Shown piece by piece: positions 7,698 through 25,348 of a stretch of DNA of 32,379 bases. Below the pieces are notes generated by a model. That model had not been told where the DNA came from and did no database searches. It saw only the letters and a program-made list of their open reading frames with translations. Within the stretch, counting starts at the first letter, position 1. The number at the start of each line of letters is the position of its first letter. Origin of the DNA: an uncultured Planctomycetota bacterium (GTDB lineage Bacteria; Planctomycetota; Phycisphaerae; SM23-33); the NCBI GenBank assembly GCA_903892515.1, contig CAITIS010000085.1, forward strand, positions 1 through 32,379. The letters run 5' to 3'. A program made the translations under genes and the position numbers.

Positions 7698-7744
7698 AAT
7701 GCTTGGAAAGCTCCGTAATGACACCTCATTAGAAGGAGAACCTC

Positions 7745-11454: not shown

Positions 11455-12047
11455 ACGAAGGCTCACCGCGCATCCTGGTGGCCGGTCTGGGCAACATCTT
11501 CCTGGGCGATGATGCCTTCGGCGTGGAAGTCGCCCGGCGGCTGTTGCAGGCCCCCCCGCCCGGGGACGTCCGCGTGGTGGACTTCGGCATCGCTGGCATC
11601 GACCTGATCTACTCCCTGCTCGATGGCTACGACCTGGTCATTCTCATCGACGCGGTCGCGCGGGGCGAGGGGCCCGGCACGCTGTACGTAATTGAGCCCG
11701 AGATGCCCGACGACGGCCAGAACAACACCTCTGTGACTGAAATGCTCGATCCCCACGACATGGACCCGGCCAAGGTGCTGCGCATGGTGACCAGCTTGGG
11801 TGGCCGTGTCGGCAGAGTGCTGCTGGTCGGCTGCGAGCCCACGCCTATGGACGAACACGCGGACATGAGCGATGGCCTGAGCGAGCCGGTCCGTAACGCC
11901 GTGGAACACGCGGTCGAGTTGACTATGCGACTGGTCGCCGACGCACACAAAGATGACGGACGAACTCTATCGGCATGCACTGTGGCCGGAGACCCTGCGG
12001 CCCTCGCGCAGCCGATGTCGGCGGGCCTGAAGGAGGCAAACCAATGA
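11451..12047 (+). CDS. hupD: Hydrogenase maturation endopeptidase (HyaD/HybD/HupD family)
   Basis: AGGAGG RBS. N-terminal ILVAGLGNIFLGDDAFG matches the GxGNxxxxDDGxG protease signature. 198 aa. Confidence 0.85.
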   Translation: MNEGSPRILVAGLGNIFLGDDAFGVEVARRLLQAPPPGDVRVVDFGIAGIDLIYSLLDGYDLVILIDAVARGEGPGTLYVIEPEMPDDGQNNTSVTEMLDPHDMDPAKVLRMVTSLGGRVGRVLLVGCEPTPMDEHADMSDGLSEPVRNAVEHAVELTMRLVADAHKDDGRTLSACTVAGDPAALAQPMSAGLKEANQ

Positions 12048-12374: not shown

Positions 12375-13772
12375 CTACACCACTTCAAATTTGCCCAAGT
12401 GCAGCCAGCGATCGGAGTATTCCGTCTTGTTGGCGAAGCTGACCTTGGCTTGCTGGCTCTGGGCATCGATCAAGCCGGCCGACAGCTCGACCAGTCCTGG
12501 CCGCAAGCCTGAAGGCATGGTCAGCGATCGTTCGAGACACACATCGCCAGGCAGCCAGGTGCGAACGTCCACGTCCTTGAAGGGCACGATGAAGGAGTTG
12601 TCGTCCTGGCGGAATCGCAGGGCGAAGTCGTATCGACGGTACAGCGGGGCGATACCGGTGTTCTCGATCCAGCAATCGAAAGCCGACTGGCCGTTGAGCT
12701 TGACCTTGGCCTCAAACTTGGCTTGGCGGAAGACGTACCGGTACCCGATCTTGTCGCAGAAGGTCTGCAGCCGATCCATCCAGGCCTCGGGCAGGCGGCA
12801 GTACTTGGGCATGAAGTACGTCAGGTGGTACTTGTACGCCTGCTCGAAAATGAAGTCGAGATCGAACTTCTGCTTGTGCCACCACATGGGGCTGGGGCCA
12901 ACCTCGAAGAACACCGGCCCGGTCTTCCAGGCCTCGGTCACGCCCGAGGCCAGCAGGTGCTGCGGATAGGCGTCGTAATGATGGTTCCACGAGACGTCTT
13001 TGGTGACGGAATCGGAGCCGGGGGCGTCCAGGTCGCCAAAGGCGTTCCAGCGCCAGCCGCCCCTGCGATCTTTCTGAAGCCCGGCGCGCATCTGCTTACC
13101 GGAGAATTCCCAGAGCTTGATCGTGGTGGGAAACGCTTCGCAGAATACATCCGCAAAGCGCGCGATCTGCTCGTCGGTCATGTCGGCGTCGCCCTCGCCC
13201 CAGGGGCCCATGAAGGCGCAGGTGTAGTTCTCGACCTGGGGATGGCCGTCAAAGCGCCGGCCCAGTTCGCGGATGAACTCGCTCCAGTGTTCAAAATACT
13301 CTGGCGAGTTGGGTTCGGGCATGAAATGCTCGACGTGCTCCCAGCCGGTGAAGTGATATTGCACCATCGGGTACTTGTCGCGATACCATTTTGGCACCAT
13401 CGGCTGGAGGAACCCGCCGAATGCCATGGCGCGGAAGGCCAGCTTCTGGCCGCGCTCCTTGCATACCTGCAGCGACTTCTCGATCACCGAGAAGTCGTAC
13501 CGGCCTTTTTCAGGCTCCATCAATTCCCAGAACCAGCGGCAGTACGCCACCGTCGTGGGCAGGTAGCCGTTGGTGACCAGGTCTTCCTGGCCGCTGGTCA
13601 GCTGCTTGAGTGTGATCGGCGAGGGAAACTGCTCCGGGCCGCATTCGGAGTACTCCATTCGCGGGTACAACTCATCGCCATTGAAGTGCTGGAAAGTGCA
13701 GCAGCCCTTGTGCGGGTTGGCCAGGTACGCATCGCTGTACGCCGGTCGGACTCGGACGAATTTCTCTGCCAC
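12375..13772 (-). CDS. Glycoside hydrolase, GH42-like TIM-barrel (DUF4874/DUF4832-type), cytoplasmic
   Basis: 465 aa with no signal peptide. The region YCRWFWELMEPEKGRYDFSVIEKSLQVCKERGQKLAFR follows the GH42 beta-galactosidase-like pattern (W..lEPe.G.ydF...d..i..a...G..v.l). Confidence 0.55.
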   Translation of the reverse strand: MAEKFVRVRPAYSDAYLANPHKGCCTFQHFNGDELYPRMEYSECGPEQFPSPITLKQLTSGQEDLVTNGYLPTTVAYCRWFWELMEPEKGRYDFSVIEKSLQVCKERGQKLAFRAMAFGGFLQPMVPKWYRDKYPMVQYHFTGWEHVEHFMPEPNSPEYFEHWSEFIRELGRRFDGHPQVENYTCAFMGPWGEGDADMTDEQIARFADVFCEAFPTTIKLWEFSGKQMRAGLQKDRRGGWRWNAFGDLDAPGSDSVTKDVSWNHHYDAYPQHLLASGVTEAWKTGPVFFEVGPSPMWWHKQKFDLDFIFEQAYKYHLTYFMPKYCRLPEAWMDRLQTFCDKIGYRYVFRQAKFEAKVKLNGQSAFDCWIENTGIAPLYRRYDFALRFRQDDNSFIVPFKDVDVRTWLPGDVCLERSLTMPSGLRPGLVELSAGLIDAQSQQAKVSFANKTEYSDRWLHLGKFEVV

Positions 13773-13871: not shown

Positions 13872-14648
13872 TCACGGGCTGTCAGAGCCCGCGGCTGCCC
13901 GAAGGATTGCGTCGCGGTCAAATACATGAATGGCCGCCCTGCCGTCGCCATCGGTAATCAGGCAGTGCACCTGCGGCGGCGGCAGGAAGTACAGAATCCC
14001 GGACTTGTTGAGTTTCGTCTGGTCGGCCAGCACGATCACCTGCTGGGCCAAGCGTGCCGCCAGCTTCTTCAGTGGTATCTCCCCGGCCGAGGCCCGGGTG
14101 AGCCCGCGCTTGAGGTCAAAGCCCGCCGCCCCCAGGAACGCCTTGTCCAGCCGAAACGATGCGAGGCACTCTTCGGCGATGTGCCCCACCACGGCCCTGA
14201 GGTCGCGCCGCATCTGGCCACCCAGCAGAATCGTCTCGATGCCCGGGGCTTCAGCCAATTCCGTCGCCAGCGGGATGGAAGGTGTCACGATGGTCAAGGC
14301 CTTGCGCCCAATCAGCAGCGGCGCCATGGCCAGGACGGTGGTGCCGGCATCCAGGTAGATCACCTCGCCGTCCTGGATCATCCCAACGGCCGCTGAGGCG
14401 ATCTGTCGCTTGGCGCGCGCGTTGTGCTTCTGGCGGATGCGGTAGTCCAATTCGATCTGGCTGTACATCTCCGAGACGGCGCCGCCATGGGTGCGACGAA
14501 TCAGCCCCTTGGCTTCGAGATGATCCAGATCGCGACGAACGGTCATCTCCGAGACGCCCAGAACCTTCGAGAGGGCCTGCACGGACTCGTAGCCGCTGTC
14601 GGTGAGCAGCTCGAGAACCCTTTGGCGACGTTGTTCAGATGAATCCAT
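13872..14648 (-). CDS. DeoR/GlpR-family transcriptional regulator
   Basis: N-terminal wHTH (RRQRVLELL...ESVQALSKVLGVSEMTVRRDLDHLE) and a C-terminal DeoR sugar-phosphate-binding domain; 258 aa. Divergent from the 14831-25348 gene array. Confidence 0.85.
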   Translation of the reverse strand: MDSSEQRRQRVLELLTDSGYESVQALSKVLGVSEMTVRRDLDHLEAKGLIRRTHGGAVSEMYSQIELDYRIRQKHNARAKRQIASAAVGMIQDGEVIYLDAGTTVLAMAPLLIGRKALTIVTPSIPLATELAEAPGIETILLGGQMRRDLRAVVGHIAEECLASFRLDKAFLGAAGFDLKRGLTRASAGEIPLKKLAARLAQQVIVLADQTKLNKSGILYFLPPPQVHCLITDGDGRAAIHVFDRDAILRAAAGSDSP

Positions 14649-14830
14649 ACCGCCTCATATGATCGATATCACACATTTCTTGTGCCGGGACAATTACCAT
14701 AAATCCCGCATATGCCCAGATTAACCGACAGTTTCCTGTTGATGCAAGCGGATTCGCATGATAGCTTTTGTGTGATTGGTAGAATTTGCACACACCCTGA
14801 CAAGGTCGCGTCCCGCGAGCGGAGTGAGGC
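14649..14830. promoter_or_regulatory. Divergent promoter/operator region between the DeoR regulator and the first URO-D-like gene
   Basis: AT-richer than its surroundings. It contains a near-consensus -10 (TAGAAT at ~14780) embedded in GTGTGA-N12-GCACAC, plus a second ATCACACA...TTGTG motif at ~14664-14683. These are candidate regulator binding sites. Confidence 0.35.
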
Positions 14831-16096
14831 ATGACACAAGCCGCATGCAAGGTACTGCCGGCCGATAAGGCCGTTCTTCGTGAGTTGGCCCAGAGGTATC
14901 TCGATGCCTGTAACAGCCCGCGCAACCAGGAATGCCGGCGGCTGTGGCACAAGCACGACCTGTGTCGCGGCGAGCGGCCACTGATCCTCACCGAGGCCAA
15001 TGAGGGCGTCGAGATGATCATCGGCGAATACCGGCCGGGCTGCCAGGAGCAGTGGGCACGCGGACGGGAACGGGAGTTCCTCACGCATCTGGCCCACTTC
15101 GAGGTCATTGGCGACGACTACCCGCTCGAACCGTTCGTGGACCTGGCCTGGCAGATCACCGTCAGCGAGTACGGCGTGGCGTTTCACCACACCTCCCCCG
15201 AGACTTCAGGGACGCGCGGGGCGTACCACATCGACGCGCTCATCACCGACCTGGAGCGCGACTTCGACCGCCTCAAGCCCCGAACCTTCACGCTGGACCG
15301 CGCCGCATCCTTAGAGATGAAGGCCGCCCTGGAAGACGTGTACGACGGCCTGCTTGAGGTGCGCATGCGACATCACCCCTGGTGGTCGCTGGGCATGACC
15401 TGGGACGCGATTCGGCTGGTCGGGCTCGAGGGGCTAATGCTGGCCATGTACGACCAGCCTAAAGGGCTGCACCGCCTGATGGCGTTTCTTCGCGACGACA
15501 ACGTGCGGTTGCTGGAGTGGCTGGAACAAGAGCAGCTGCTGAGCCTCAACAATAGCAGCGACTACATAGGCTCCGGCAGCCGGGGCTATACCACCGCCCT
15601 GCCAGGCCGCGACGCTACCGATCATGTGCGACCGGCCGATATGTGGGTCCTGCTGGAGTCGCAGGAAACAGTCGGCGTGGGCCCGGCCCAGTTTGAGGAG
15701 TTCATCTTCCCCTATCAGGACAGCCTGGCCCAGCGTTTCGGCCGGGTGTACTACGGCTGCTGCGAGCCGGTACATACACGTTGGCACGTCGTGAAAAAGC
15801 TGGCCAATCTCAAGCGCGTCAGCGTTTCCCCGTGGTGTGATGAGCCCTTCATGGCTGAGGCGTTGGGTAACAATTGCGTGTACAGCCGCAAGGCCAAGCC
15901 GACGCTGGTCAGCACCGATCGCTTCGACGAGGAACTCATTCGCAAAGACCTGCGCGACACGATGCTGGCAACACGGAAACATGGCTGCACGGTCGAGATC
16001 ATCATGAAAGACGTTCACACGCTTCGAGGCCAGCGCGACCGCCTGACGCGCTGGACGCAACTGGCCCGGGACGTGACGGCCGAAGTGTATCGGTGA
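14831..16096 (+). CDS. URO-D-like (uroporphyrinogen decarboxylase / MtaA-fold) family protein, paralog 1 (421 aa)
   Basis: The C-terminal half (FIFPYQDSLAQRFGRVYYGCCEPVHTRWHVVKKLANLKRVSVSPW) aligns in pattern with the URO-D-fold paralog at 16262-17317. GGAGTGAGG RBS. Confidence 0.5.
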   Translation: MTQAACKVLPADKAVLRELAQRYLDACNSPRNQECRRLWHKHDLCRGERPLILTEANEGVEMIIGEYRPGCQEQWARGREREFLTHLAHFEVIGDDYPLEPFVDLAWQITVSEYGVAFHHTSPETSGTRGAYHIDALITDLERDFDRLKPRTFTLDRAASLEMKAALEDVYDGLLEVRMRHHPWWSLGMTWDAIRLVGLEGLMLAMYDQPKGLHRLMAFLRDDNVRLLEWLEQEQLLSLNNSSDYIGSGSRGYTTALPGRDATDHVRPADMWVLLESQETVGVGPAQFEEFIFPYQDSLAQRFGRVYYGCCEPVHTRWHVVKKLANLKRVSVSPWCDEPFMAEALGNNCVYSRKAKPTLVSTDRFDEELIRKDLRDTMLATRKHGCTVEIIMKDVHTLRGQRDRLTRWTQLARDVTAEVYR

Positions 16097-16120
16097 TCGT
16101 GGGCTGCGGCCCAAGCTTGC

Positions 16121-16255
16121 CTAGAACTGGTTTCATAACCGTGGTACGCCCGCCCTCGGGCGTCAAACCGGTCGAGAAGCCGTAGATATCGCCGCAAAAG
16201 CCACAGCCGAGGGCGGCTGTGCCACGCGTCAAACTGGTTATGAAACCAGTTTTAG
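16121..16255. mobile_element. MITE-like 135-bp element with 20-bp terminal inverted repeats (CTAGAACTGGTTTCATAACC / GGTTATGAAACCAGTTTTAG) and nested internal inverted repeats
   Basis: Read from the sequence. The outer TIRs have 19/20 matches. An inner 10-bp inverted repeat is CCGCCCTCGG/CCGAGGGCGG. The right end is itself the perfect hairpin AAACTGGTT-ATGA-AACCAGTTT. The element lies in the 165-bp gap between the two URO-D-like genes and is AT-richer than its flanks. Confidence 0.45.
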
Positions 16256-16261
16256 CTGTAT

Positions 16262-17317
16262 TTGGAGTGTGCGAACGTGAGTGACTTGCGAGACCCGGTT
16301 CTGGATGCACTGCACTTTCGGCCGCCGGCGTACGTGCCCTGGGCGTGGAAGATGACGATTCCCTGCCGCCAGCGGGTCAGCGAGTTCCTCGGCGGTCAGC
16401 CGGCTGAGACGATGCTCGAGAGCCACTTTCTCGACATCAAAAGCCCGGTGCGCCGCTACGAGCCCATTGGAGAAGGACTGGTTCGCGACAGCTTTGGCGT
16501 GACCTGGGACCGCTCCGTTGATCCCGACATTGGCACGCCCGTTGATTGGCCGCTCAGGGAGCCCAAAGATCTCTTGCGGTATCGATTCCCCGTGGCCGAT
16601 GACGCGTCCTTGTACGAGTTCGTCGGCCCTGAACTGAAACAGAGCCGCGGACGCTTTGGCCGCTTCTGCATCGGCCTGTCGCTGTACGAGCGAGCCTGGA
16701 CGCTGCGCGGGATGACGCAGTTGTTCGAGGACATGATCGACCGGCCGGAGTTCGTGGAGGAGTTGTTCGACGCCATCGCCGATCACACCATCCAGCAGGT
16801 GCATCAAGCCTTGAAGTTCGATTTCGACGCCTTTCATTTCGGCGACGATTACGGCATGCAGACCGGCCTGATCATGGGCCTGGATCGCTGGCGGCGATTG
16901 TTCAAACCCCGGCTGGCGCGAATCTTCGAACCGGTCCGCAAGGCCGGCAAGTTCATCTTTCTGCACTCCTGCGGCAAGGTCGAGAGCCTGCTGGACGACT
17001 TCGTCGAGATCGGGCTGAGCTGCCTGGACCCGTTCCAGCCCGAGGTGATGGACACGGTGGCCTTGATAAAGAAATACCATGGTCGCCTGGCCTTCCACGG
17101 CGGCTTGAGCATTCAAAAGACCCTGCCCTTCGGCTCGCAGGCCGACGTTCGGCGCCAGACCCAACGACTCATCGACGCCGGCAGCGCTGGCGGGCTCATC
17201 TTCTCGCCGGCCCACGCCGTGCCGGGCGATGTTCCACCTGAAAACCTGCGGGCGATGATGGATGTGCTTAAGGCGCAGCCCGGCTACCGCGCGAGCTTTG
17301 GCTCGCAAACTCTTTGA
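16262..17317 (+). CDS. URO-D-like (uroporphyrinogen decarboxylase / MtaA-like methyltransferase fold) family protein, paralog 2
   Basis: Has the hallmarks of the URO-D family TIM barrel: FGDDYGMQTGL, FLHSCGKV, HGGLSIQ. The start is uncertain (TTG at 16262 or GTG at 16277). Confidence 0.65.
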   Translation: MECANVSDLRDPVLDALHFRPPAYVPWAWKMTIPCRQRVSEFLGGQPAETMLESHFLDIKSPVRRYEPIGEGLVRDSFGVTWDRSVDPDIGTPVDWPLREPKDLLRYRFPVADDASLYEFVGPELKQSRGRFGRFCIGLSLYERAWTLRGMTQLFEDMIDRPEFVEELFDAIADHTIQQVHQALKFDFDAFHFGDDYGMQTGLIMGLDRWRRLFKPRLARIFEPVRKAGKFIFLHSCGKVESLLDDFVEIGLSCLDPFQPEVMDTVALIKKYHGRLAFHGGLSIQKTLPFGSQADVRRQTQRLIDAGSAGGLIFSPAHAVPGDVPPENLRAMMDVLKAQPGYRASFGSQTL

Positions 17318-17328
17318 GAGGAACTGCA

Positions 17329-18675
17329 ATGGCGTTTCCGAAAGACTTTGTCTGGGGCGTGGCCGCATCGTCGTACCAGATTGAAGGCGCACTGGCCGAG
17401 GATGGCCGCAAGCCGTCGGTGTGGGACATGTTCTGCGCCCGGCCAGGGGCGATCTGGATGGGCCATAACGCCGCCGTTGCCTGCGACCACTGGCACCGTC
17501 ACAAGGAAGACGTCGCGCTGATGAAGCAACTCGGCATGAAGGCCTACCGGCTGTCGATCGCCTGGCCGCGGGTGATTCCCGACGGCACCGGCGCGGTCAA
17601 TGCCAAGGCCCTGGACTTCTACAGCCGCCTGGTAGACGACCTGCTGGCGGCGGGCATCGAGCCCTGGGTCACGCTGTTTCATTGGGACTTCCCGTACGAT
17701 CTCTACTGCCGCGGCGGCTGGCTGAATCGCGACGTGGCCGAGTGGTTCGCGGAATATTCTGCCGTGGTGGCTCGGCGCCTGGGCGACCGGGTGACAAAGT
17801 GGATGACGATCAACGAGCCCGAATGCGTCTCCGTGCTGGGCCATCAGATCGGCATCCAGGCGCCCGGCGACAAGCTGGCCCCCAACGAAGTCGTCCGCGT
17901 CATGCACCACCTGCTGCTATCTCATGGCCGGAGCGTTCAGGCAGTGCGGGCCAATGCCAAGAGCAAGCCCTCGGTCGGGCTGGTGTTTGCGGCCAGGATT
18001 TTCATGCCCGCCACGGAATCTGCCGCCGACATCGAGGCGGCGCGGACGTTGGCGATTCCCGGCAAGGCCGAAGATCTCTGGGCCAATGGCTGGTGGATGG
18101 ACCCCGTGCTGCTGGGCAAATACCCCGAGAGCTTCGTCAAGCATATCGCCCCGCCCATCGAGCCGGGCGACATGGAGATCATCTCCCAGAAGACGGACTT
18201 CATGGGCATGAACCTGTACAACGGCGCGTACATTCGGGCCACGGCCAACGGCCCCGAGGAAGTGCCGCCGCCCGAAGGCGTGGCCCTGACCTCCATCCAT
18301 TGGCCCTTCACGCCCGAGGCGTATCGCTGGGCCACCCGCTTCGCCTTTGAGCGGTATAAGCTGCCGATCTACATCACCGAAGGCGGCATGGGCGGGCTGG
18401 ATTGCGTATCCCCCGATGGCCAGGTGCGCGACCCGCAGCGGATCGCCTACCTGCACCGCTACTTTCTGGAGTTGGAGAAGGTCATCGCCGAAGGCGTGGA
18501 CGTCCGCGGCCACTTCATCTGGTCGATTATGGACAATTTTGAATGGGGCGAGGGCTACAAGCACCGCTGCGGAATCGTGTTTGTGGACTACCAGACGCAG
18601 CAGCGCATCCCGAAGGATTCGGCATGGTGGTACAAGCGGATCAGCGAGACGAACGGGCGGTCGTTGCATGAGTAA
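17329..18675 (+). CDS. Glycoside hydrolase family 1 beta-glycosidase (beta-glucosidase-like)
   Basis: ATG at 17329 (GAGGAA upstream) gives the typical GH1 N-terminus MAFPKDFVWGVAASSYQIEG. The acid/base motif is TINEP and the nucleophile motif is YITEGG. Confidence 0.9.
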   Translation: MAFPKDFVWGVAASSYQIEGALAEDGRKPSVWDMFCARPGAIWMGHNAAVACDHWHRHKEDVALMKQLGMKAYRLSIAWPRVIPDGTGAVNAKALDFYSRLVDDLLAAGIEPWVTLFHWDFPYDLYCRGGWLNRDVAEWFAEYSAVVARRLGDRVTKWMTINEPECVSVLGHQIGIQAPGDKLAPNEVVRVMHHLLLSHGRSVQAVRANAKSKPSVGLVFAARIFMPATESAADIEAARTLAIPGKAEDLWANGWWMDPVLLGKYPESFVKHIAPPIEPGDMEIISQKTDFMGMNLYNGAYIRATANGPEEVPPPEGVALTSIHWPFTPEAYRWATRFAFERYKLPIYITEGGMGGLDCVSPDGQVRDPQRIAYLHRYFLELEKVIAEGVDVRGHFIWSIMDNFEWGEGYKHRCGIVFVDYQTQQRIPKDSAWWYKRISETNGRSLHE

Positions 18676-18738
18676 GCGGCCCTCGGCGAGGTGCATCGAG
18701 CATATGGATTCCTTCACTAAATAGGCAATGGCGAGTTT

Positions 18739-20082
18739 ATGACAACTATCGAAACAATCGCTACCGAGATCGAAAAGGCGCTGTGCAACCAGCCGATGCT
18801 GGACGTGCACACGCACATTGACGCGGGGCATCTGTCCGCCCGCGGGCTGCATGACGTGCTGCTGTACCACATGGTCATCAGCGATCTGTACGCCGCCGGC
18901 TGTCCCAGCGGGCAGCGGATGAGCGAGTGGCCCGACGAGGCCGAGGCCCACTCGAGACTGGTCGAGGCCGTGCCGTTCCTGCCGAAGATTCAGAATACGT
19001 CCTGTTATTGGGGCGTCCGCATCATCCTGCGCGACCTGTACGGCTGGGAGGAGCCCCTCACGCCCGAAAACTGGCAGCGCGCCGACGCGATTATCCGCAA
19101 GCGATCCGGCGACGCCGCCTGGCCGCGGCAGATCATGGACCGGGCCGGGGTACGGCGAATCGGCGCGGAACTCGGCCGGCGCGGCGACGGCAGCGCTGAC
19201 GACATCATGCAATATGCCGTGGAGTCGGCGTTCTTCACGCGCGTGCAGCAGGGCCAGAACGATGCCCCGCTGTATGAACTCGAGCGAACGTGGGATTGCG
19301 ACAAATTGCCGCCGCCAATCTCCATCAATCTCGATGCCGCCACGAGGCCCAGGCCGCCCAAGACCATTCGCAGCGCCAAGGACGCCCGCCTGGCCATGGG
19401 CCATTACTGTGCGTTGATGCCGTTCGGCAAGGTCTTATCGACGGCGCAGCACATATCCACGGACATCCATTACCGCCTGGTGACGGACCAGGAGATGGAC
19501 GCAGCCGTCTCGCGCCGCGATTGCGCCACGGTGGCCGACCGCGACACGTACGCCAGCTTCCTGCTGGACCTGTTCCTGGCCGCTCTTTCCAAGCACAGCC
19601 ATGAGTTCGTCTACCAGTTTTCGCTGGGGGCCGAACCGCTGCCCTTCGAGACTGCCTCGCGCGTTTCGCAGCGGACGATCGCGCAGTTGGCCGACATTCT
19701 GCAGCGGTACCCCAAGCTGCGGTTCATGTGCTTCGTTTCCAGCCGGCACGCCAACCAATCGCTGTGCACGATGGCGCGCGAGTTGCCCAACCTGTCGCTG
19801 GCGGGGTATTGGTGGCACAACTTCTTCCCCGATGCGATCCGGCAGGTGATGAACGAGCGGCTGGATATGCTGCCGACGAACAAACAGGTGGGATTCTTCT
19901 CCGACGCCTATTGCATGGACTGGCTGTACGCCAAGGCCGTCATCGTGCGGAAGCAACTGGCCTGGGTGCTGGCGGGCAAGGTGGCGCAGGGACAATATGA
20001 CGTGAAAGCTGCATTGAGCATCGCCGAGGCGATCTTGCTGAAGACTCCGCAAGAACTGCTCGGCATGACAATCTACGGCTGA
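18739..20082 (+). CDS. Glucuronate isomerase (UxaC)-like amidohydrolase-fold protein
   Basis: LDVHTHID metal-binding motif near the N-terminus. Collinear pattern matches to E. coli UxaC as I recall it: [13 protein letters not shown] vs [30 protein letters not shown] vs [39 protein letters not shown] vs [28 protein letters not shown]. Confidence 0.65.
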   Translation: [447 protein letters not shown]

Positions 20083-20097
20083 TTTCGTGATGGCGTG

Positions 20098-20198
20098 GCA
20101 CGGGCGTCTCGCCCGTGTGTGTCACGACCGTCCCGGCCGTGAGGTCTTCGGTGCATGGGCGAGACGCCCATGACACGCATGGCCGAGACGGCCATGTC
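20098..20198. repeat. Cluster of three small hairpins of the GGGCG-GTCTC/GAGAC-CGCCC family (CACGGGCGTCTCGCCCGTG; CATGGGCGAGACGCCCATG; CATGGCCGAGACGGCCATG) in the uxaC-like/aldolase intergenic region
   Basis: Read from the sequence. Each unit is a 7-bp stem with a 5-nt loop. Units 1 and 2 are in inverted orientation ~35 nt apart. The same core occurs in the 12262-12339 inverted repeat. Confidence 0.7.
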
Positions 20199-20221
20199 AC
20201 CTTATAGGAAGGTTTGGACGT

Positions 20222-21034
20222 ATGGGACTTGGCAAGCAGATTCATCTGGGCCGGCTGTTCGGGCACTCGTCGGGCCGCCTGTGTTCGATCGCTGTGGATC
20301 ATTTCGTGGGCTATCACGAGGTCATGCCGCCGGGGCTGCGCGACCTGCCGCGGACGCTGCGGCAGATCGTGGCGGCTAAGCCTGACGCGGTCACCATGCA
20401 GATCGGCACGGCCAGGACGTGCTGGGCCGAGCATGCCGGCAAGGTGCCGCTGATCGTTCAGAGCATCATGGGCCGGCCTGACGACACGTGCGACGAGCAC
20501 CTGGCCGAGCCTGACGATGCCGTGCGCCTTGGCGCCGACGCCTTCGCCACCTGCGCGTTCATCCGTGGCCGGAGCGAGGGCGCACACCTGGCCCGCGTGA
20601 GCCGGTTCGTGCGGCAGGCGGAGACCTGGGACATCCCGGTGATCCTGCACATCTACCCGCGGCATTTCGCCCCCGACGGCAGCGTGGAGATTGTGTACGA
20701 GCCCCAGGAGATCGCCTGGTGCGTGCGCTGCGGCATCGAGGTGGGCGTGGACGTGATCAAGGTCCCCTACTGCGGCGACGTGGCCAGCTATCGCCAGATC
20801 ATCGACTCCTGCCCCGTGCCGGTCGTGGCCGCGGGCGGGCCGAAGGCGTCCACCTTGGGCGATGCGCTGGCGATGGCTTCTGCCGTGGTGGAGGCCGGCG
20901 CCAAGGGCATGACCATTGGCCGCAACGTCTGGGGCGTCGAGCAGATCACGCAGGCGGTGACCGCCTTCAAGGCCGTGGTGCATGACGGGCTATCGGCCCA
21001 GCAGGCCATGAAGCAAGCGGGCCAGGCACGGTGA
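20222..21034 (+). CDS. Class I aldolase of the DhnA/FbaB family (fructose-bisphosphate-aldolase-like; substrate unknown)
   Basis: 270 aa. IKVPY contains the candidate Schiff-base Lys, and GRNVWG matches the GRNIFQ signature of DhnA-type aldolases. AGGAAGG RBS. Confidence 0.7.
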   Translation: MGLGKQIHLGRLFGHSSGRLCSIAVDHFVGYHEVMPPGLRDLPRTLRQIVAAKPDAVTMQIGTARTCWAEHAGKVPLIVQSIMGRPDDTCDEHLAEPDDAVRLGADAFATCAFIRGRSEGAHLARVSRFVRQAETWDIPVILHIYPRHFAPDGSVEIVYEPQEIAWCVRCGIEVGVDVIKVPYCGDVASYRQIIDSCPVPVVAAGGPKASTLGDALAMASAVVEAGAKGMTIGRNVWGVEQITQAVTAFKAVVHDGLSAQQAMKQAGQAR

Positions 21035-21960
21035 TGACGAGCCCACAGTTCGACGTGCTGGGCATCGGCGTGCTGGCCGTGGATGAGATCATTCACGTCC
21101 TCTGCTATCCGCCGGCCGATGAGAAGGCCCCCGTGCTCAAGGAAGAACGGGTGTTTGGCGGCCTGATGGGCACAGCCTTAGCGGCCATCGCACAACTGGG
21201 CGGACACTGCGCGTATCTTGGCACGCTGGGCCAGGACGAGCTTTCGCGCTCGGTGCTCGCGGGGTTGTCGGAACTGGGCGTGGATGTCGATCGCGTCTCG
21301 GTCGCCTCCGCCGCCGGGCCGGTCCACAGCATCATCATTGCCGACGATTCAGCCCACACCCGCAACATCTTCTTCAACGAAAGCCGGGTCGCTCCGCCTG
21401 CCCTCACCGCCATCACGCCCGACGTGTTGCGTCGCTGCCGCGTGCTGCTGGTCGATCACGTGCACCTTCAGGCGGCCGTGGCGGCCTGCCGTTTGGCGCG
21501 CGAACTGGGCATTCCCAGTGTGGCCGATGTTGAGTCGAGTGGGGCCGCGCAGGCCGACGAACTCATCTCGGCCGTGGATCATCTCATCGTCTCGCGCAGC
21601 TTCGCCGCGGCGCTAACGGGCGCCAGCGAGCCGGCGGAAATGGTCCGATCGCTCTGCCGGAAGCACCCTCGCGCCTGCACGGCCGTGACGTGTGGCCGGT
21701 CGGGCGTGTACTTCGCCGGCGACGATGGCGCCGTGCAGCACCGCCCCGCCTACGTGGTCACGCCCATGGACACGACCGGCTGCGGCGACGTATTCCACGG
21801 GGCGTACGCGCTGGCGTTGGCTCGTGGCCAGGGCGTCGCACAGTGCATCGACTTTGCCGCCGCCGCTGCGGCCGTGTTTGCATCCCGGCCGCCCGGATGG
21901 CACAATCTGCCGCACGCTAGCGATGTGGCCGCCCTGCTTGGCCGGATAGAGAAGGAATGA
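21031..21960 (+). CDS. PfkB-family carbohydrate kinase
   Basis: N-terminal GxGxxxxD-type motif (VLGIGVLAVDEI) and C-terminal DTTGCGDVFHGAY (the PfkB DTxGAGD signature). The start (GTG 21031 or ATG 21034) overlaps the aldolase stop. Confidence 0.85.
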   Translation: MMTSPQFDVLGIGVLAVDEIIHVLCYPPADEKAPVLKEERVFGGLMGTALAAIAQLGGHCAYLGTLGQDELSRSVLAGLSELGVDVDRVSVASAAGPVHSIIIADDSAHTRNIFFNESRVAPPALTAITPDVLRRCRVLLVDHVHLQAAVAACRLARELGIPSVADVESSGAAQADELISAVDHLIVSRSFAAALTGASEPAEMVRSLCRKHPRACTAVTCGRSGVYFAGDDGAVQHRPAYVVTPMDTTGCGDVFHGAYALALARGQGVAQCIDFAAAAAAVFASRPPGWHNLPHASDVAALLGRIEKE

Positions 21961-21961
21961 G

Positions 21962-23950
21962 ATGACGTCTTCGATCACGTTGCGGATGCAATTCGCGCTG
22001 GGCCACGACGAGGCCATCGTTGCCGCCGAGATCGACCGGGTCTGCAAGCAGGCCAAGGTCGACGAGATCATGTTCTTCGCGTACGGCGAGGAATTGAACA
22101 ATGGCCATGAGAGCCTCCCCGAGATCGCGGCGTGGATGGCGTCGATTCGTCCGCACAAGCAGCGACTCGAAAAGGCCGGCATTTCGTGCAGCCTGAATCC
22201 GTGGCACACGCTGCTGCACATCGACCGCGGAAGGCGGCTCAAGCCCGATCAGCCGTGGCAGACGATGGTCGATTGGCAGGGCTCGCAGGCCACGTCCGTG
22301 GTCTGCCCGCTGGATGGCGCCTGGCAGAATTACTACGCGCAGGCGATGCAGCTCTTCGCGGCGGAGCGCTTCCGCGTGATCTGGATCGACGATGATTTCC
22401 GGTATCACAATCACCCGCCGCTGAACTGGGGCGGCTGTTTCTGCCCGCTGCATGTGGCCGAGTTCAACCGCCGCGCCGGCGCCCACGCCACGCGCGAGGA
22501 AATACTTCACGCTTGCCTCGGGGCGGGCCAGCCGCACCCGTGGCGGCAGATCTGGCTGGACATGTGGCAGGAGACCGCCCTGAAGTTGGCCGAGCGGTGG
22601 CAGGCGATCGTGGCAGCGCATGGCTGCAAGTTGGGGCTGATGTCGTCGGACTTCGACGCCCACAGCGCCGAGGGCCGGCACTGGAGCCAGTGGGCGCGGG
22701 CCTTTGCGGGCAGCGGGCCGTTCGTTCACCGGCCGCATTACTGGGTGTACTCCGACGTGATGGGCAAGGACGGCCTGGCCAACTCGATCGCCATGCTGGA
22801 CCAGAATCGGCGCGTCGAGCCGGCTGGCTCGGAAGTCGGACCCGAGGTCGACAACGGCTACTATTACCCGTGGAACAAGTCGTACCGCCAGACCACCGCC
22901 CAGCTGAACCTGGCCCAGGTCTTCGGCAGCACGAACCTCAACGTCAGCCTGTACGACTTCATGGGCAACCTGCCCTCCGACGACACCAGCCGGGTGAGCT
23001 TTCTTCAGAGCCTCCGGCCAAACCTGGATTTCCTGCAAATGCACTTCCCGCCGACGCTGCAAAGCCAGGGCATCGGCATCGTCTGGCGCGAGGACTACTC
23101 ACGCCGCATGCACGCTGCCAACCCCACGACGGGCTGGCGGGCATTGCATGGCCGTAGCCGGGCATGGGTGCCATGGCTGGGTGCGCTGGGGTTTGGCTTC
23201 CAGATGGCCGATGCGCCGGCGGTGAACGCGCTGGCAGGCGAGATGGCCTGGGCGCTGGACGATGCTGAACTGCATGGCCTGCTGGCTCAAGGCCTGCTGC
23301 TGGACGGCCCGGCGGCGATGGTGCTGGCCCAGCGCGGCTTTTCCGAGCATATCGGGCTGAGCCAGCCACGAACGGTCACGCAGCAGGATGTGCTGTACTC
23401 GATGGAGCAGTTCACCGACCCGGAGTTCGCTATGCGAGTCGGTTCAACGCAGAACGTCAACGCCGGCCACGACGCGATGGTGCAGGGCCGGCCCAGCGCT
23501 CGCGCCCGCGTCATCAGCCGACTGCTGGACCCGCGCGGTAATGACATCGGGCACGGCATGCTTCTCTTCGAGAACTCCCTGGGCGGACGGGTGCTGACCG
23601 TGCCCTTCGCCGCCACCGATGCCGTATTCATGAGCCCGCAGCGGGCCAGCGCGATGATTCCGGCGATCCAGTGGCTTGCCAAAGGCGCAGGTCTTGGCCG
23701 GTCCGGTGGCGGGGCCTGGCTGATTCCGCAGTTCATTTCCGACGGCAAGATCCATCGGGCCGTCATCTGGAATGCGGGCTTTGATCCGGTTGATGCTGTG
23801 AAACTGGAGCTGCCGTCTTCCTGGCCGGTTTTGCGGTCCGCCTATCACCTGCTCCCCGACGGCAAGAGCATCGAACTGGCCTGCAAGGACAACCAGTTCC
23901 GGCTCTCTCAACCGTTGGCGCAATGGGAACTCGTTGTGGCAATCGCCTAG
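21962..23950 (+). CDS. Hypothetical cytoplasmic protein (662 aa), unknown function, co-oriented within the sugar-utilisation array
   Basis: Long ORF immediately after the PfkB stop (a 1-nt gap). No signal peptide; Trp-rich; no motif I can assign. Confidence 0.55.
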   Translation: MTSSITLRMQFALGHDEAIVAAEIDRVCKQAKVDEIMFFAYGEELNNGHESLPEIAAWMASIRPHKQRLEKAGISCSLNPWHTLLHIDRGRRLKPDQPWQTMVDWQGSQATSVVCPLDGAWQNYYAQAMQLFAAERFRVIWIDDDFRYHNHPPLNWGGCFCPLHVAEFNRRAGAHATREEILHACLGAGQPHPWRQIWLDMWQETALKLAERWQAIVAAHGCKLGLMSSDFDAHSAEGRHWSQWARAFAGSGPFVHRPHYWVYSDVMGKDGLANSIAMLDQNRRVEPAGSEVGPEVDNGYYYPWNKSYRQTTAQLNLAQVFGSTNLNVSLYDFMGNLPSDDTSRVSFLQSLRPNLDFLQMHFPPTLQSQGIGIVWREDYSRRMHAANPTTGWRALHGRSRAWVPWLGALGFGFQMADAPAVNALAGEMAWALDDAELHGLLAQGLLLDGPAAMVLAQRGFSEHIGLSQPRTVTQQDVLYSMEQFTDPEFAMRVGSTQNVNAGHDAMVQGRPSARARVISRLLDPRGNDIGHGMLLFENSLGGRVLTVPFAATDAVFMSPQRASAMIPAIQWLAKGAGLGRSGGGAWLIPQFISDGKIHRAVIWNAGFDPVDAVKLELPSSWPVLRSAYHLLPDGKSIELACKDNQFRLSQPLAQWELVVAIA

Positions 23951-24067
23951 ACCGCGGCAGCGACTCGCGGCTGAATCAGGCGGAATTGCTGGTCCACGAC
24001 GCGCTATAGCGATAGCCTATTGCCAGGAAATGGCCCAGCGCGGCCACCTCGATGGAGTGTTCAAGCA

Positions 24068-25348
24068 ATGAGTGCCGACATGCCTGCCAAGCCCGAATCG
24101 ATGCACGCCACGGATGTCCGCCTGCTGTTTGTAACGCGGGCGCTGCGGATGTTTGCGTACGGCTTCCTGTCCGTGCTGCTGGTGCTGTACCTGGCCCAAC
24201 TGGGGCTTCCCGACACCAGGATCGGCCTGCTGCTGACGCTCACGCTGGTGGGCGACATCGGCGTGTCACTCTGGCTGACGACTACGGCCGACCGGCTGGG
24301 GCGGCGAAAGACGCTGGTCATCGGCGCGGCGCTGATGCTGCTGGCCGGCGTGGTCTTCGCCCTGACGGGAAACTTCATCCTGCTGGTGATCTCGGCCACC
24401 ATCGGCGTCATCAGCCCCAGCGGCAACGACGTCGGGCCGTTCCTGTCGGTCGAGCAGGCCAGCCTGTCGCAGGTCATCCCCGACGAACGCCGCACGCATG
24501 TTTTCGGCTGGTATAACCTGGCGGGCTCGCTGGCGACGGCCGCCGGCGCCCTGGCCGGCGGATCCACCGTGCAACTGCTCAAGAACGCCGGCGTGCCGGA
24601 CGTGCCGGCGTATCGCGTGGTCATCTGGGCGTATGCCGCCACGGGCGCCGTGCTGGCGCTGCTGTTCGTCCGGCTGTCCAAGGCCGTGGAGATCGGCCAG
24701 ACGCCCGAGAGCACCCGCATCGCCGGCACGCGAGTATTCCTAGGCCTGCACAAGTCCAAGGGCGTGGTGGCCAGGCTCTCGGGCCTGTTCATGATCGACG
24801 CCTTCGCCGGCGGCTTCGTGATCCAGAGCATCATGGCCTACTGGTTCTACAAGAAGTTCGGGGTCCAACCGGCCACGCTGGGGACAATCTTCTTCGTGGC
24901 CAACATCCTGGCGGCGGTCTCCGCCCTGCTGGCGACGAAAGTGGCCGCCAAGATCGGCCTGATCAACACGATGGTCTTCACGCACCTGCCCTCCAACATA
25001 CTGCTCATCTTGGTGCCGCTGATGCCCAACCTGTCCCTGGCCATCACCATGCTGCTGCTGCGTTTCAGCATCAGCCAGATGGACGTGCCCACGAGGCAAT
25101 CGTACGTGATGGCGGTGGTCGAGCCCGATGAACGCTCCGCCGCCGCGGGCGTGACGGCCGTAGCCCGCAGCGTGGGCGCTGCCGTGTCGCCCAGCCTGGC
25201 CACAATGCTGCTGGCCTTTCCCATGCTGCTGGGGGCCCCCTTCATCATCGGCGGCGGCCTGAAGATTCTCTATGACCTGCTGCTGTACCGAAGTTTTTCC
25301 GCCACCAAGAAGAAAGCGGCAGAGGCGGATTCTGCGTCAACATCGTAG
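24068..25348 (+). CDS. Major facilitator superfamily (MFS) transporter
   Basis: Twelve hydrophobic segments in two halves, with a DRLGRRK loop motif (the MFS signature D-R-x-G-R-[RK] between TM2 and TM3). The start is ambiguous (ATG 24068 preferred; 24020 or 24080 possible). Confidence 0.8.
   Translation: MSADMPAKPESMHATDVRLLFVTRALRMFAYGFLSVLLVLYLAQLGLPDTRIGLLLTLTLVGDIGVSLWLTTTADRLGRRKTLVIGAALMLLAGVVFALTGNFILLVISATIGVISPSGNDVGPFLSVEQASLSQVIPDERRTHVFGWYNLAGSLATAAGALAGGSTVQLLKNAGVPDVPAYRVVIWAYAATGAVLALLFVRLSKAVEIGQTPESTRIAGTRVFLGLHKSKGVVARLSGLFMIDAFAGGFVIQSIMAYWFYKKFGVQPATLGTIFFVANILAAVSALLATKVAAKIGLINTMVFTHLPSNILLILVPLMPNLSLAITMLLLRFSISQMDVPTRQSYVMAVVEPDERSAAAGVTAVARSVGAAVSPSLATMLLAFPMLLGAPFIIGGGLKILYDLLLYRSFSATKKKAAEADSASTS

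Follow-up and report, generated by a model that had tools for sequence, protein, structure and literature searches.

A conserved isomerase-kinase-aldolase triad in a probably mosaic sugar-utilisation gene cluster of an uncultured Planctomycetota bacterium

The window analysed here, a stretch of 32,379 nucleotides of DNA from an uncultured Planctomycetota bacterium, contains a 10.7-kb block of genes flanked by a DeoR-family regulator (Table 1). This block is a real sugar-utilisation gene cluster, and the question that it raises is whether its nine genes encode one conserved catabolic pathway, as an earlier note had proposed from the sequence. The ORF calls recover every gene named in that note at its stated position and place all but the regulator on the + strand, and the tight, co-oriented arrangement over about 10 kb, divergent from DeoR, is borne out: the reading frames partly overlap (by 4 bp at both UROD351/GH1 and aldolase/PfkB), and the gap between PfkB and U662 is 1 bp. 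Our analysis leans towards the view that the cluster, which is probably co-transcribed, combines four modules in a mosaic peculiar to its lineage rather than forming one conserved nine-gene pathway, and that its conserved module is a sugar-splitting triad.

Table 1. Features of the cluster and its divergent regulator, in window coordinates
Feature	Position	Strand	Description
DeoR-family regulator	13872..14648	-	258 aa; divergent from cluster
Control region, divergent	14649..14830	.	between DeoR and U421
U421	14831..16096	+	421 aa; predicted remote URO-D/MetE-type TIM-barrel fold
Structured spacer, long inverted repeat/hairpin	16097..16261	+	between U421 and UROD351
UROD351	16262..17317	+	351 aa; URO-D family, MtaA-like rather than HemE
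GH1 beta-glucosidase (putative)	17314..18675	+	453 aa; PF00232, TIGR03356
UxaCl, UxaC-like amidohydrolase-superfamily protein	18739..20082	+	447 aa; putative aldose-ketose isomerase; conserved core gene
19-nt palindromic hairpin unit, three copies	20099..20196	+	isomerase-aldolase spacer
DhnA/MJ0400-type class I aldolase (predicted)	20222..21034	+	270 aa; PF01791
PfkB-family sugar kinase, ketose-1-kinase-like	21031..21960	+	309 aa; PF00294
U662, predicted GH42/GH164-fold three-domain protein	21962..23950	+	662 aa; cytoplasmic; candidate glycosidase
MFS_1 transporter, probable importer	24020..25348	+	442 aa; PF07690

The conservation of the neighbourhood, named beforehand as a test that could refute the nine-gene proposal, was assessed in 80 species-level genome loci anchored on UxaCl (orthologues 55-63% identical) from Chloroflexota, Verrucomicrobiota, Planctomycetota, Poribacteria, Hydrogenedentota, Armatimonadota, Acidobacteriota and Bacteroidota; UxaCl homologues as a whole number more than 2691, at about 60% identity and across phyla. 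A PfkB kinase adjoins UxaCl in 44 of the 80 loci and a DhnA-type aldolase in 27, both being nearby in 23, and the usual order elsewhere is aldolase-kinase-isomerase, with the first two genes directly upstream of UxaCl. This triad recurs in at least eight phyla; PfkB, the aldolase and an RPE-like epimerase are all missing from 29 loci (about 36%), some contigs being short. GH1, U662 and MFS genes, in contrast, are found beside UxaCl in none of the 80 loci. URO-D-like genes occur near it, at distances of up to 6 kb, in four to six loci and directly downstream in two (L082 and L083), and the U421 gene in one; it adjoins UxaCl in L086, and a 411-aa protein with no Pfam match precedes the closest UxaCl orthologue. 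When 80 loci are anchored on U421 instead, no other window gene is conserved except a URO-D-like gene in three. The aldo/keto reductase-ferredoxin fusion, which had been suggested as a partner that processes the aldehyde product, never stands alongside the triad in the 80 UxaCl loci, nor is any aldehyde-disposal gene consistently linked to it there. The evolutionarily conserved part of the cluster is the isomerase-kinase-aldolase triad only, three of the nine genes, so that the 10-kb unit as a whole fails this comparison whereas its core is kept. The functional tie of the GH1, U662, MFS and URO-D-like genes to the triad consists of adjacency and overlapping codons in one organism.

In the proposed route, the metal-dependent UxaCl would convert an aldose to a ketose, the PfkB kinase would convert the ketose to a ketose-1-phosphate, and the aldolase would cleave this to DHAP and a short aldehyde; what the analysis shows are the gene content, the folds, the pattern of conservation and the conserved active-site residues, and the individual reactions, the pathway's direction and its substrate are inferred. 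UxaCl has no Pfam match, and its C-terminus alone matches the NCBIfam glucuronate isomerase model (41 bits against a cut-off of 387). Its profile matches in the PDB are an uncharacterised amidohydrolase (4i6v, 3e-28) and the uronate isomerase Bh0493 (2e-12). The metal-binding HxH pair, the Tyr and the Asp known from uronate isomerase are kept as the invariant residues H24, H26, Y43 and D389. The position of Arg357 in Bh0493, however, is occupied by an invariant tyrosine, Y391, and UxaCl may therefore be wholly inactive on uronates.

The kinase, which carries a catalytic GCGD motif (250-253), has as its best PDB matches the sulfofructose kinase YihV (7e-30), an uncharacterised Agrobacterium kinase, ribokinases and ketohexokinase (2e-13), and scores 60 bits against the IolC model (cut-off 300). 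Its nearest solved relatives, YihV and ketohexokinase, phosphorylate C1 of ketofuranoses, and all of 30 orthologues keep the counterparts of D13, K27, S95 and D244 (YihV numbering), which bind the sugar or take part in catalysis. The sulfonate triad of YihV is K27-N109-R138 (PMC8006165). Of these the cluster kinase keeps K27 only; at N109 and R138 the window protein and all 30 orthologues have other residues, F/L/M and F/H/L/Y/V respectively. Such hydrophobic or variable residues argue against an anionic group at C6 and would favour a deoxy or neutral sugar.

The aldolase matches PF01791 at 100 bits and PRK07226 at 190 bits, under the cut-off of 241, and its PDB matches are led by MJ0400 (1e-33), followed by an archaeal class I FBP aldolase (2e-21) and LsrF (2e-14). 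K180, within a DVIKVPY motif that aligns with MJ0400-type enzymes, is the candidate Schiff-base lysine. Judged by sequence, the protein is a DHAP-type class I enzyme nearest to MJ0400 and the archaeal class I FBP aldolases, all of which bind DHAP; MJ0400 handles 6-deoxy-5-ketofructose-1-phosphate. The order of reactions first suggested for the cluster (isomerise, phosphorylate, cleave) is strengthened by these affinities to ketose 1-kinases and DHAP-type class I aldolases.

Other genomes have an alternative to the aldolase. Among the 80 loci, the aldolase is present in 27, the RPE-like epimerase in 16 and a RuBisCO-like protein (RLP) in 13; RLP and the epimerase occur together in nine, but the aldolase occurs with the epimerase in one and with RLP in two, so that the aldolase and the RLP/RPE genes are almost mutually exclusive beside UxaCl and PfkB. 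The replacement of the aldolase by RLP and the RPE-like epimerase is consistent with a kinase product that can be processed in either of two ways. The RLP beside UxaCl and PfkB has no near relative among the characterised RLP clades, the R. rubrum-type included. As to other neighbours, UxaCl and PfkB are accompanied in Verrucomicrobiota and Planctomycetota operons by a GFO/IolG-like dehydrogenase and an AP_endonuc_2 (IolE-family) protein, CUT2/nucleoside-type ABC transporters adjoin the triad in Chloroflexota, a small cupin lies near it in five to seven loci, and a CE15-like esterase gene lies near UxaCl in L053.

With the triad as the first module, the MFS importer (PF07690 at 114 bits) and U662, probably a cytoplasmic exo-glycosidase, would form the second module and an ordinary GH1 beta-glucosidase the third, together taking up a glycoside or oligosaccharide and releasing monosaccharide(s). 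U662 has no sequence match in Pfam, NCBIfam or the PDB, and no profile match to any glycoside hydrolase of the PDB, although 270 homologues (47-55% identity) are spread over many phyla. Its structural model (pLDDT 91, pTM 0.92) has a TIM barrel, an alpha/beta domain and a beta-sandwich, and the top Foldseek matches are GH42 beta-galactosidases, a GH164 beta-mannosidase and a GH35-like glucosyltransferase (E 1e-18, TM about 0.6). The three-domain architecture is shared with the clan GH-A families GH42 and GH164 (Foldseek probability 1.0), but the identity is 9-12%, there is no Pfam GH42 match, and no Asn-Glu acid/base or Glu nucleophile of the canonical kind was recognised in U662. A C115...C159-x-C161-xx-H164 cluster may match the GH42 zinc site in its spacing. 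The model makes U662 a candidate glycosidase of an undescribed family. A transporter adjoins U662 in five of six contexts; the pairing with MFS is also seen in an Armatimonadota genome, and a Chloroflexota operon combines U662 with a CE15-like esterase, GH4 and UxaE. The GH1 protein, in which no signal was seen, matches PF00232 with 469 bits, exceeds the 478.5 cut-off of TIGR03356 (BGL) with 541 bits, and has canonical motifs (TINEP 165-169, ITEGG 354-358, NFEW 408-411). It looks like an ordinary neutral beta-glucosidase, which does not support the idea that it frees the sugar isomerised by UxaCl.

The fourth module would comprise two URO-D-superfamily proteins. UROD351 matches PF01208 at 79 bits over its C-terminal half only (residues 149-337), and its MtaA/CmuA-type NCBIfam matches fall far under cut-off. 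Aligned to MtaA (4ay7), it keeps the His-x-Cys of the zinc methyltransferases, but has His where MtaA has Cys as third ligand, giving a candidate zinc site of His-x-Cys (LHSCG, 234-238) and His318; a corrinoid partner is also missing, neither corrinoid protein nor activase being present among the large ORFs scanned in the window. U421 has no sequence match in Pfam, NCBIfam or the PDB, but 3673 homologues (50-74% identical). Its model (pLDDT 90) has URO-D as the best PDB fold match (Foldseek E 1e-5, TM 0.4-0.5), suggesting a weakly URO-D-like protein and a remote fold relative. Neither protein reaches the HemE or MtaA equivalog cut-offs, and the U421 family has an invariant set of its own (CCEP 310-313, C336 and H396). 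Most of the family and fold guesses in the earlier note were right; the caveats concern U421, related by fold only, UxaCl with its lack of a Pfam match, and the "662-aa unknown", which is without a sequence family but has a GH42/GH164-type fold by model.

The spacer between U421 and UROD351 contains a very stable hairpin (MFE -81.3 kcal/mol, z = -6.8 against shuffles), which may separate U421 transcriptionally from the rest; its inverted repeat was seen in contigs of the same species only. The isomerase-aldolase spacer also folds (-73.6 kcal/mol, z = -4.4) and contains three sites of a 19-nt palindromic unit, CATGGSCGAGACGSCCATG, against 0.09 expected. In the control region, two sigma-70-like + strand matches (14634-14663 and 14758-14785) are not above chance for the region, and a ATCACACA/TGTGTGAT motif repeated at 14668 and 14769 is a putative operator. 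The regulator (PF08220 HTH_DeoR, PF00455 DeoRC) is AgaR/GlpR-like but under equivalog cut-offs, and its effector is probably one of the route's sugar phosphates. Three to four of the 80 loci have a DeoR-like regulator beside the triad, and others have GntR.

The logic of the triad would be that of sulfo-EMP, IolB/IolC/IolJ and the fucose/rhamnose routes, although the enzymes come from other protein families. The sulfo-EMP pathway of E. coli (YihS, YihV, YihT, YihQ, YihO/P, CsqR) likewise imports, deglycosylates, isomerises, 1-phosphorylates and cleaves to DHAP and an aldehyde under a DeoR-type regulator, and its YihV is the nearest solved relative of our kinase; its isomerase, however, is AGE-fold rather than UxaC/amidohydrolase-fold, its aldolase LacD-type rather than DhnA/MJ0400-type, and its glycosidase GH31 rather than GH1 and the GH42-like protein. 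The likeness in logic with different families, noted at the outset for this and the Ashwell pathway, was borne out. The Ashwell hexuronate pathway (UxaC, UxuB/UxaB, UxuA/UxaA, KdgK, Eda) also starts with a UxaC/Bh0493 homologue and continues with a PfkB kinase and an aldolase, but it has reductase and dehydratase steps that the cluster lacks, its aldolase is of the pyruvate-type KDPG class, and UxaCl is far under UxaC model scores. Among the large ORFs scanned in the window there is no UxuA, UxuB, UxaA, UxaB or GH31, as had been said of the Ux genes. IolB, IolC and IolJ convert 5-deoxyglucuronate through DKG and DKGP to DHAP and malonate semialdehyde, an isomerase, PfkB kinase and aldolase in series acting on a uronate-type sugar, but with a cupin isomerase and a class II aldolase; IolG, IolE and IolD are absent from the window. 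The DHAP and MTA-isoprenoid shunts for 5-deoxy- and 5-methylthio-pentoses direct a ketose-1-phosphate either to an aldolase (DHAP + aldehyde) or to RLP, the same choice as beside UxaCl and PfkB. They differ in all families (MtnK/MtnP, MtnA, class II Ald2) and from the isomerase-then-kinase order, and no nucleosidase is linked to the triad.

The leading candidates for the triad substrate are an acidic (uronate-type) sugar and a 6-deoxy or 5-deoxy sugar. In a hexuronate route resembling EMP, glucuronate or galacturonate would become a keto-uronate, be phosphorylated at C1 and yield DHAP and tartronate semialdehyde; elsewhere the phosphorylated keto-uronate would be turned into a pentulose phosphate by RLP and epimerases, a decarboxylation suited to that branch. 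The homology of UxaCl to uronate isomerases, its metal ligands, Tyr and Asp, the Iol precedent, the CE15-like, GH4 and UxaE associations and the absence of UxuAB/UxaAB are consistent with this. We nevertheless consider it rather unlikely, if possible, since the kinase positions facing C6 are hydrophobic, UxaCl has Tyr for Arg357, the GH1 is a neutral-sugar enzyme, and neither tartronate-semialdehyde reductase nor glycerate kinase is recurrently linked in the 80 loci. The hydrophobic positions would instead suit either a 6-deoxyhexose, such as D-fucose or D-quinovose set free by enzymes of the GH1 type, or a pentose of the 5-deoxy or 5-methylthio kind. Once isomerised and phosphorylated at C1, the sugar would be split into DHAP and either lactaldehyde or acetaldehyde, in a counterpart of the DHAP shunt that begins with the isomerase, and the RLP branch would resemble the MTA-isoprenoid shunt; the MJ0400 affinity, the alternation of aldolase and RLP/RPE, the small cupin and the CUT2 transporters point the same way. 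The pocket argument is drawn from alignment, however, the RLP is not near the characterised clades, no nucleosidase, phosphorylase or lactaldehyde enzymes are linked in the 80 loci, literature support was not found, and we judge this route unlikely.

That the genes share no pathway and are independent neighbours assembled by rearrangement is suggested by the lack of co-occurrence outside the triad and by the repeat and hairpin elements of the spacers, but the overlaps and 1-bp gap that join UROD351-GH1 and aldolase-PfkB-U662, the single orientation with one divergent regulator and the carbohydrate-related nature of all products make it doubtful. The original nine-gene route, which would need the two proteins of URO-D fold to decarboxylate a (keto)uronate or to demethylate 4-O-methylglucuronate, found no positive evidence and is very improbable: the zinc-type H-x-C of UROD351 and the few URO-D-like, U421 and 411-aa genes beside UxaCl accord with it, but such associations are about as frequent in unrelated loci (3/80), the corrinoid machinery is absent, no gene is conserved beside U421 across 80 loci, and the strong hairpin stands between U421 and the operon. 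Sulfoquinovose, metabolised in a sulfo-EMP manner by a non-orthologous isomerase and aldolase, is recommended by YihV as best kinase match and by the regulator, transporter, glycosidase and reaction logic. It was largely refuted as substrate by the loss of two of the three sulfonate-binding residues and has hardly any probability left; GH31 sulfoquinovosidase, SQ mutarotase, SLA reductase/dehydrogenase and sulfonate exporter are neither in the window nor recurrent in the 80 loci.

No published description of the triad was found in the literature searched, and it would represent a widespread sugar-splitting route across bacterial phyla.

The isomerase, kinase and aldolase genes of the locus form a core that recurs in many phyla, and the operon that surrounds them in the window is a local, lineage-specific assembly of modules. 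With the 447-aa isomerase, UxaCl, as anchor (55-63% identity), we collected 80 genome loci at species level, the 80 best of 470 and many of them on short contigs, and searched them for every window protein; their sources include Chloroflexota, Poribacteria, Verrucomicrobiota, Planctomycetota, Hydrogenedentota, Armatimonadota, Acidobacteriota and Bacteroidota. Among these best 80 loci, a PfkB kinase lies near UxaCl in 44, the aldolase in 27 and both in 23; a DeoR-like gene is found in 3-4, a relative of the 351-aa protein UROD351 in 4-6 and one of the 421-aa protein U421 in a single locus. The counts are from tblastn at E <= 1e-10 for the window proteins, and at E <= 1e-8 in a recount adding new neighbours called with a crude ORF caller, with query coverage of at least 50%. 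In the 48 loci that extend 4 kb or more to each side of the anchor, the kinase is present 27 times and the aldolase 18 times. Most often the genes run aldolase-kinase-isomerase, and a GntR regulator and an ABC transporter of the CUT2 type are frequent neighbours; an ABC transporter with its binding protein adjoins the triad in Chloroflexota loci L007, L019, L027 and L033. The earlier note had read the whole 10 kb as one sugar-acid pathway. On these neighbour counts, co-occurrence fails for the 10-kb unit and holds for the three-gene core (the triad), and the nine-gene cluster is rejected as a conserved unit, with GH1, the 662-aa protein U662 and the MFS transporter found around UxaCl in 0/80. 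The aldo/keto-reductase-ferredoxin fusion, once proposed as a downstream aldehyde reductase, also accompanies the triad in 0/80 and is dropped from the pathway. In four Poribacteria loci (L017, L021, L024 and L026), the neighbours of UxaCl are an SDR and two unlike PfkB kinases, one of them of the triad type, and the aldolase is not nearby.

Features of the sugar locus and its flanks, with positions in the window
Feature	Position	Strand	Matches and remarks
NiFe-hydrogenase maturation/structural cluster	6543-12047		HypD, small and large subunits, NifU-like, HycI-type protease
465-aa protein	12375-13772	-	DUF4832 and partial GH42-type N-terminal match; adjoins DeoR gene
DeoR-family regulator	13872-14648	-	HTH_DeoR (66 bits) and DeoRC sensor domain (160 bits)
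Repeated motif	14668-14675, 14768-14776, 14787-14796		DeoR-operon divergent region
U421	14831-16096	+	without Pfam model
Hairpin	16097-16261		U421-UROD351 spacer, 165 nt
UROD351	16262-17317	+	partial URO-D match (Pfam)
GH1	17314-18675	+	TIGR03356, Pfam/NCBIfam
UxaCl	18739-20082	+	without Pfam model
Palindromes	20099-20196		isomerase-aldolase spacer
Aldolase, DeoC superfamily	20222-21034	+	Pfam/NCBIfam
PfkB kinase	21031-21960	+	PF00294
U662	21962-23950	+	without Pfam model
MFS_1 transporter	24020-25348	+	Pfam/NCBIfam
939-aa protein	25520-28339	+	weak agarase-CBM-like and galactose-binding-like domain matches; directly downstream of MFS gene
Aldo/keto-reductase fused to 4Fe-4S dicluster domain	28608-29714	+	

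The genes of the locus lie where the earlier note had placed them, and Pfam and NCBIfam confirm the families of DeoR, GH1, the aldolase, PfkB and MFS. The genes are closely packed, with 4-bp overlaps between UROD351 and GH1 and between the aldolase and PfkB, and a gap of 1 bp between PfkB and U662; G+C in the 32.4-kb window, which is part of a metagenome assembly, is 61-67%. UxuA/UxuB and UxaA/UxaB are absent among the window ORFs scanned, as the first reading had it, and so are GH31 and a corrinoid protein. A NiFe-hydrogenase cluster lies directly upstream of the sugar locus. The DUF4832/GH42-like gene may belong to the same regulon, and the 939-aa protein may be a secreted polysaccharide-active protein. 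In the divergent region, the recurring motif ATCACACA / TGTGTGAT / TGCACACAC is a candidate operator. The spacer behind U421 holds a long, very stable hairpin (-81 kcal/mol, z = -6.8), an inverted repeat GAACTGGTTTCATAACC... without a T-run that is present in same-species contigs only and could be a processing element, a terminator or a MITE-like element. The spacer behind UxaCl contains three copies of a 19-nt palindrome, CAYGGSCG-AGA-CGSCCRTG (0.09 expected by chance), which may be REP-like or mRNA-stabilising hairpins. An Rfam search of the window gave zero matches, and promoter and terminator scans gave nothing exceeding chance.

The kinase (PF00294, 114 bits against a cut-off of 25.8; GCGD at 250-253) has the sulfofructose kinase YihV as its best match among solved structures (7e-30), with ketohexokinase lower in the list; both of these enzymes phosphorylate a ketofuranose at C1. 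The catalytic core of YihV is kept: across 30 triad kinases, the equivalents of D13 and S95, which hold O3 and O4, of the in-trans Lys27 and of the catalytic Asp244 are all invariant. Its sulfonate triad, K27-N109-R138 (PMC8006165), is incomplete, since in the window kinase and 30 orthologues only the Lys remains, with F/L/M at the position of N109 and F/H/L/Y/V at that of R138. The aldolase is closest to MJ0400 (1e-33, full length); archaeal class I FBP aldolases come next, then LsrF, and each of these enzymes binds a DHAP-type C3 phosphate. Its PF01791 match (100 bits) and the alignment of the Schiff-base Lys motif, DIVKTSY in MJ0400 with DVIKVPY (K180) in the window, bear out the earlier assignment to the DhnA-type class I aldolases. 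It falls below the equivalog cut-offs for ADH synthase (TIGR01949, 154 against 299 bits) and archaeal class I FBP aldolase (131 against 430), and below that of the subfamily PRK07226 (190 against 241).

UxaCl matches no Pfam model at E <= 0.01, the UxaC model included, and scores 41 bits against the NCBIfam glucuronate isomerase PRK02925 (cut-off 387), over its C-terminal 130 residues only. A profile built from its homologues has matches in 4i6v, a structural-genomics amidohydrolase (3e-28), and in Bh0493, a uronate isomerase (2e-12). In 27 sequences H24, H26, Y43 and the strand-8 Asp, D389, are invariant, and they align to the HxH ligands, Tyr50 and Asp355 of Bh0493, the roles of which (metal ligands in the case of HxH) were reportedly described by Nguyen et al. 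2009. The equally invariant Y391 (SDAY) aligns to Arg357 of Bh0493 (SDAR), which is said in the same work to contact the C2 and C3 hydroxyls of the substrate; 4i6v also has a Tyr here. Because the core residues are kept and Arg357 is replaced by Tyr, UxaCl is, as judged from sequence, a UxaC-fold, isomerase-like protein, though not a demonstrable uronate isomerase. The UxaC-like label of the earlier note is thus upheld by fold-level relatives, metal ligands, Tyr and Asp, and is not borne out by the curated UxaC models or at Arg357. A search of a plasmid collection for annotated relatives returned just one remote Paenibacillus glucuronate isomerase.

Taken by homology at every step, the most economical reading of the triad would be that UxaCl isomerises an aldose to a ketose, the PfkB kinase would give the ketose-1-phosphate, and the aldolase would split this into DHAP and an aldehyde. 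Sulfoquinovose is disfavoured as the substrate by the replacements at N109 and R138, and sulfoglycolysis accessory genes are neither present among the window ORFs scanned nor recurrent in the 80 loci. In favour of a uronate-type sugar are the isomerase's ancestry, a possible analogy with IolB/IolC/IolJ, a Chloroflexota operon in which genes for a CE15-like esterase, GH4 and UxaE surround a U662 homologue, and a CE15-like gene near UxaCl in another locus (L053); a branch with a RuBisCO-like protein (RLP) and an epimerase would suit decarboxylation. However, the kinase positions that face C6 are hydrophobic and the isomerase has Tyr in place of the Arg, and for these kinase-pocket and isomerase residues a deoxy or neutral sugar fits better.

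The RLP branch is seen in a recurrent operon of Verrucomicrobiota and Planctomycetota (L023, L036, L047, L054, L057 and L084, e.g. L084:3415-11365) that combines an RLP, a GFO/IDH/MocA dehydrogenase, an AP_endonuc_2 TIM-barrel protein, an alpha/beta-hydrolase, an RPE-like epimerase (RPE), PfkB and UxaCl; the aldolase is very rare in operons of this type. The aldolase (27 loci) is nearly exclusive of RPE (16) and RLP (13): it occurs with RPE in one locus and with RLP in two, and RLP and RPE occur together in nine. That they are hardly ever found together argues that the aldolase and RLP/RPE are alternative fates of one kinase product. The DHAP shunt and the RLP-dependent MTA-isoprenoid shunt show a similar either/or pattern. 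In the RLP the K-x-D-E metal site is intact and Lys177 is missing. The protein stands apart from the characterised clades, with weak and roughly equal matches to OiaX, form III RuBisCO and MtnW.

The two proteins first described as URO-D-like have fared differently. UROD351 matches PF01208 over profile positions 160-344 only, without a match to the HemE equivalog, and compared with the zinc methyltransferase MtaA it keeps His-x-Cys and has the third ligand changed from Cys to His; it is not HemE. U421 has zero matches in Pfam and NCBIfam (URO-D and HemE included) and in a PDB sequence search. It resembles URO-D weakly, by its predicted model alone (pLDDT 90; E 1e-5, TM 0.4-0.5), and its family has its own invariant CCEP/Cys/His set. 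Neither protein shows the defining features of the HemE or MtaA systems. The suggestion that they decarboxylate or demethylate a uronate is pure speculation, and the hypothesis is unsupported: a corrinoid methyltransferase system would have a B12-binding protein, and none is present among the window ORFs scanned, while URO-D-like genes occur near the triad at a low rate (4-6/80), about equal to that in unrelated loci (3/80, U421-anchored). In those 80 metagenome loci (the best 80 of at least 548), no other window gene was found apart from the URO-D-like gene in three, and U421 has no strongly conserved neighbour. In L159 and L160 (~5300-11250), U421 homologues adjoin a glycyl-radical-enzyme-like protein, its activase and a further URO-D-like protein; immediately upstream of U421, eight other loci have a GFO/IDH/MocA-like oxidoreductase.

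The locus also contains two proteins related to glycosidases. GH1 scores 541 bits against TIGR03356 (cut-off 478.5) and has the full set of sequence motifs of a neutral beta-gluco/galacto/fucosidase: TINEP at 165 (NEP acid/base), ITEGG at 354 (TENG-type nucleophile) and NFEW at 408 (glycone). U662, the unknown of the earlier note, is without a sequence-family match in Pfam (Glyco_hydro_42, 42M and 42C), NCBIfam and PDB profiles, and hhalign gave no alignment with the window's own GH42-like gene. Its fold is no longer unfamiliar: the predicted model (pLDDT 91, pTM 0.92) has the three domains of GH42, a TIM barrel, a trimerisation-type alpha/beta domain and a beta-sandwich. The best Foldseek matches are GH42 beta-galactosidases, a GH164 beta-mannosidase and a GH35-like beta-1,2-glucosyltransferase (E 1e-18 to 1e-19, TM ~0.6; 9-12% identity). 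The confident model and the GH42/GH164 matches make U662 a candidate clan-GH-A-like three-domain glycosidase. In GH42 the acid/base Glu follows beta-4 and the nucleophile Glu follows beta-7; the invariant acids close to those strands in U662, D144/D145, E237, E295 and D332, are candidate catalytic residues. C115/C159/C161/H164 have the spacing of the GH42 zinc site and may form one.

Homologues of U662 at 47-55% identity are found in Bacillota, Armatimonadota, Planctomycetota, Chloroflexota, Hydrogenedentota and Kiritimatiellia. A sugar transporter adjoins the homologue in five of six contexts, and an Armatimonadota genome has the U662-MFS pair as in the window. The Chloroflexota operon (L175:42-13998) encodes an SBP, two permeases, the CE15-like esterase, GH4, the U662 homologue and a GH42M-domain protein, together with a UxaE-family epimerase, Amidohydro_2, SIS and a DeoC-family aldolase; its gene content suggests a further uncharacterised uronate/oligosaccharide route with a member of this family. 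In a closely related assembly (L008:17132-20535), the U662 gene is called with 708 aa and extends into the MFS gene, which suggests a strain difference or a frameshift at the 3' end relative to the window.

The locus is not a member of sulfo-EMP, of the lower Iol pathway or of the fucose/rhamnose pathways, although its logic is like theirs, and the triad is a variant of a known pathway type within a lineage-specific mosaic operon. A search of the literature on UxaC-like enzymes with RLP, PfkB, class I aldolase, 5-deoxyribose or URO-D-like sugar clusters returned nothing relevant, and a description of the triad was not found; the enzymes in the Luteolibacter paper on L-glucose are canonical ones. 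A more ambitious proposal, to which we give a rather low probability, is that the triad is a so far overlooked, glycolysis-like route by which an abundant sugar, acidic or deoxy, is broken down, spread over Planctomycetota, Verrucomicrobiota, Chloroflexota, Armatimonadota and Acidobacteriota. An example would be the conversion of a hexuronate to a keto-uronate, a keto-uronate-1-phosphate and finally DHAP and tartronate semialdehyde. The aldolase would in some lineages give way to an RPE-like epimerase and a new RuBisCO-like enzyme, and U662 would be the first member of a new glycoside hydrolase family of GH-A, supplying the route.

The U421, UxaCl and U662 families are large and conserved (47-62% identity across phyla, with hundreds to thousands of members each) and are without a Pfam model or a described function. 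The alternation between the aldolase and RLP/epimerase provides a handle on an uncharacterised RLP clade. The triad is found repeatedly in lineages from soil, freshwater, sponges and sediment that are major polysaccharide degraders and poorly cultured. Naming its substrate would correct the annotation of thousands of MAG genes, and could show by which route a common sugar, perhaps of the uronate or the deoxy type, is fed into the central metabolism of these phyla.
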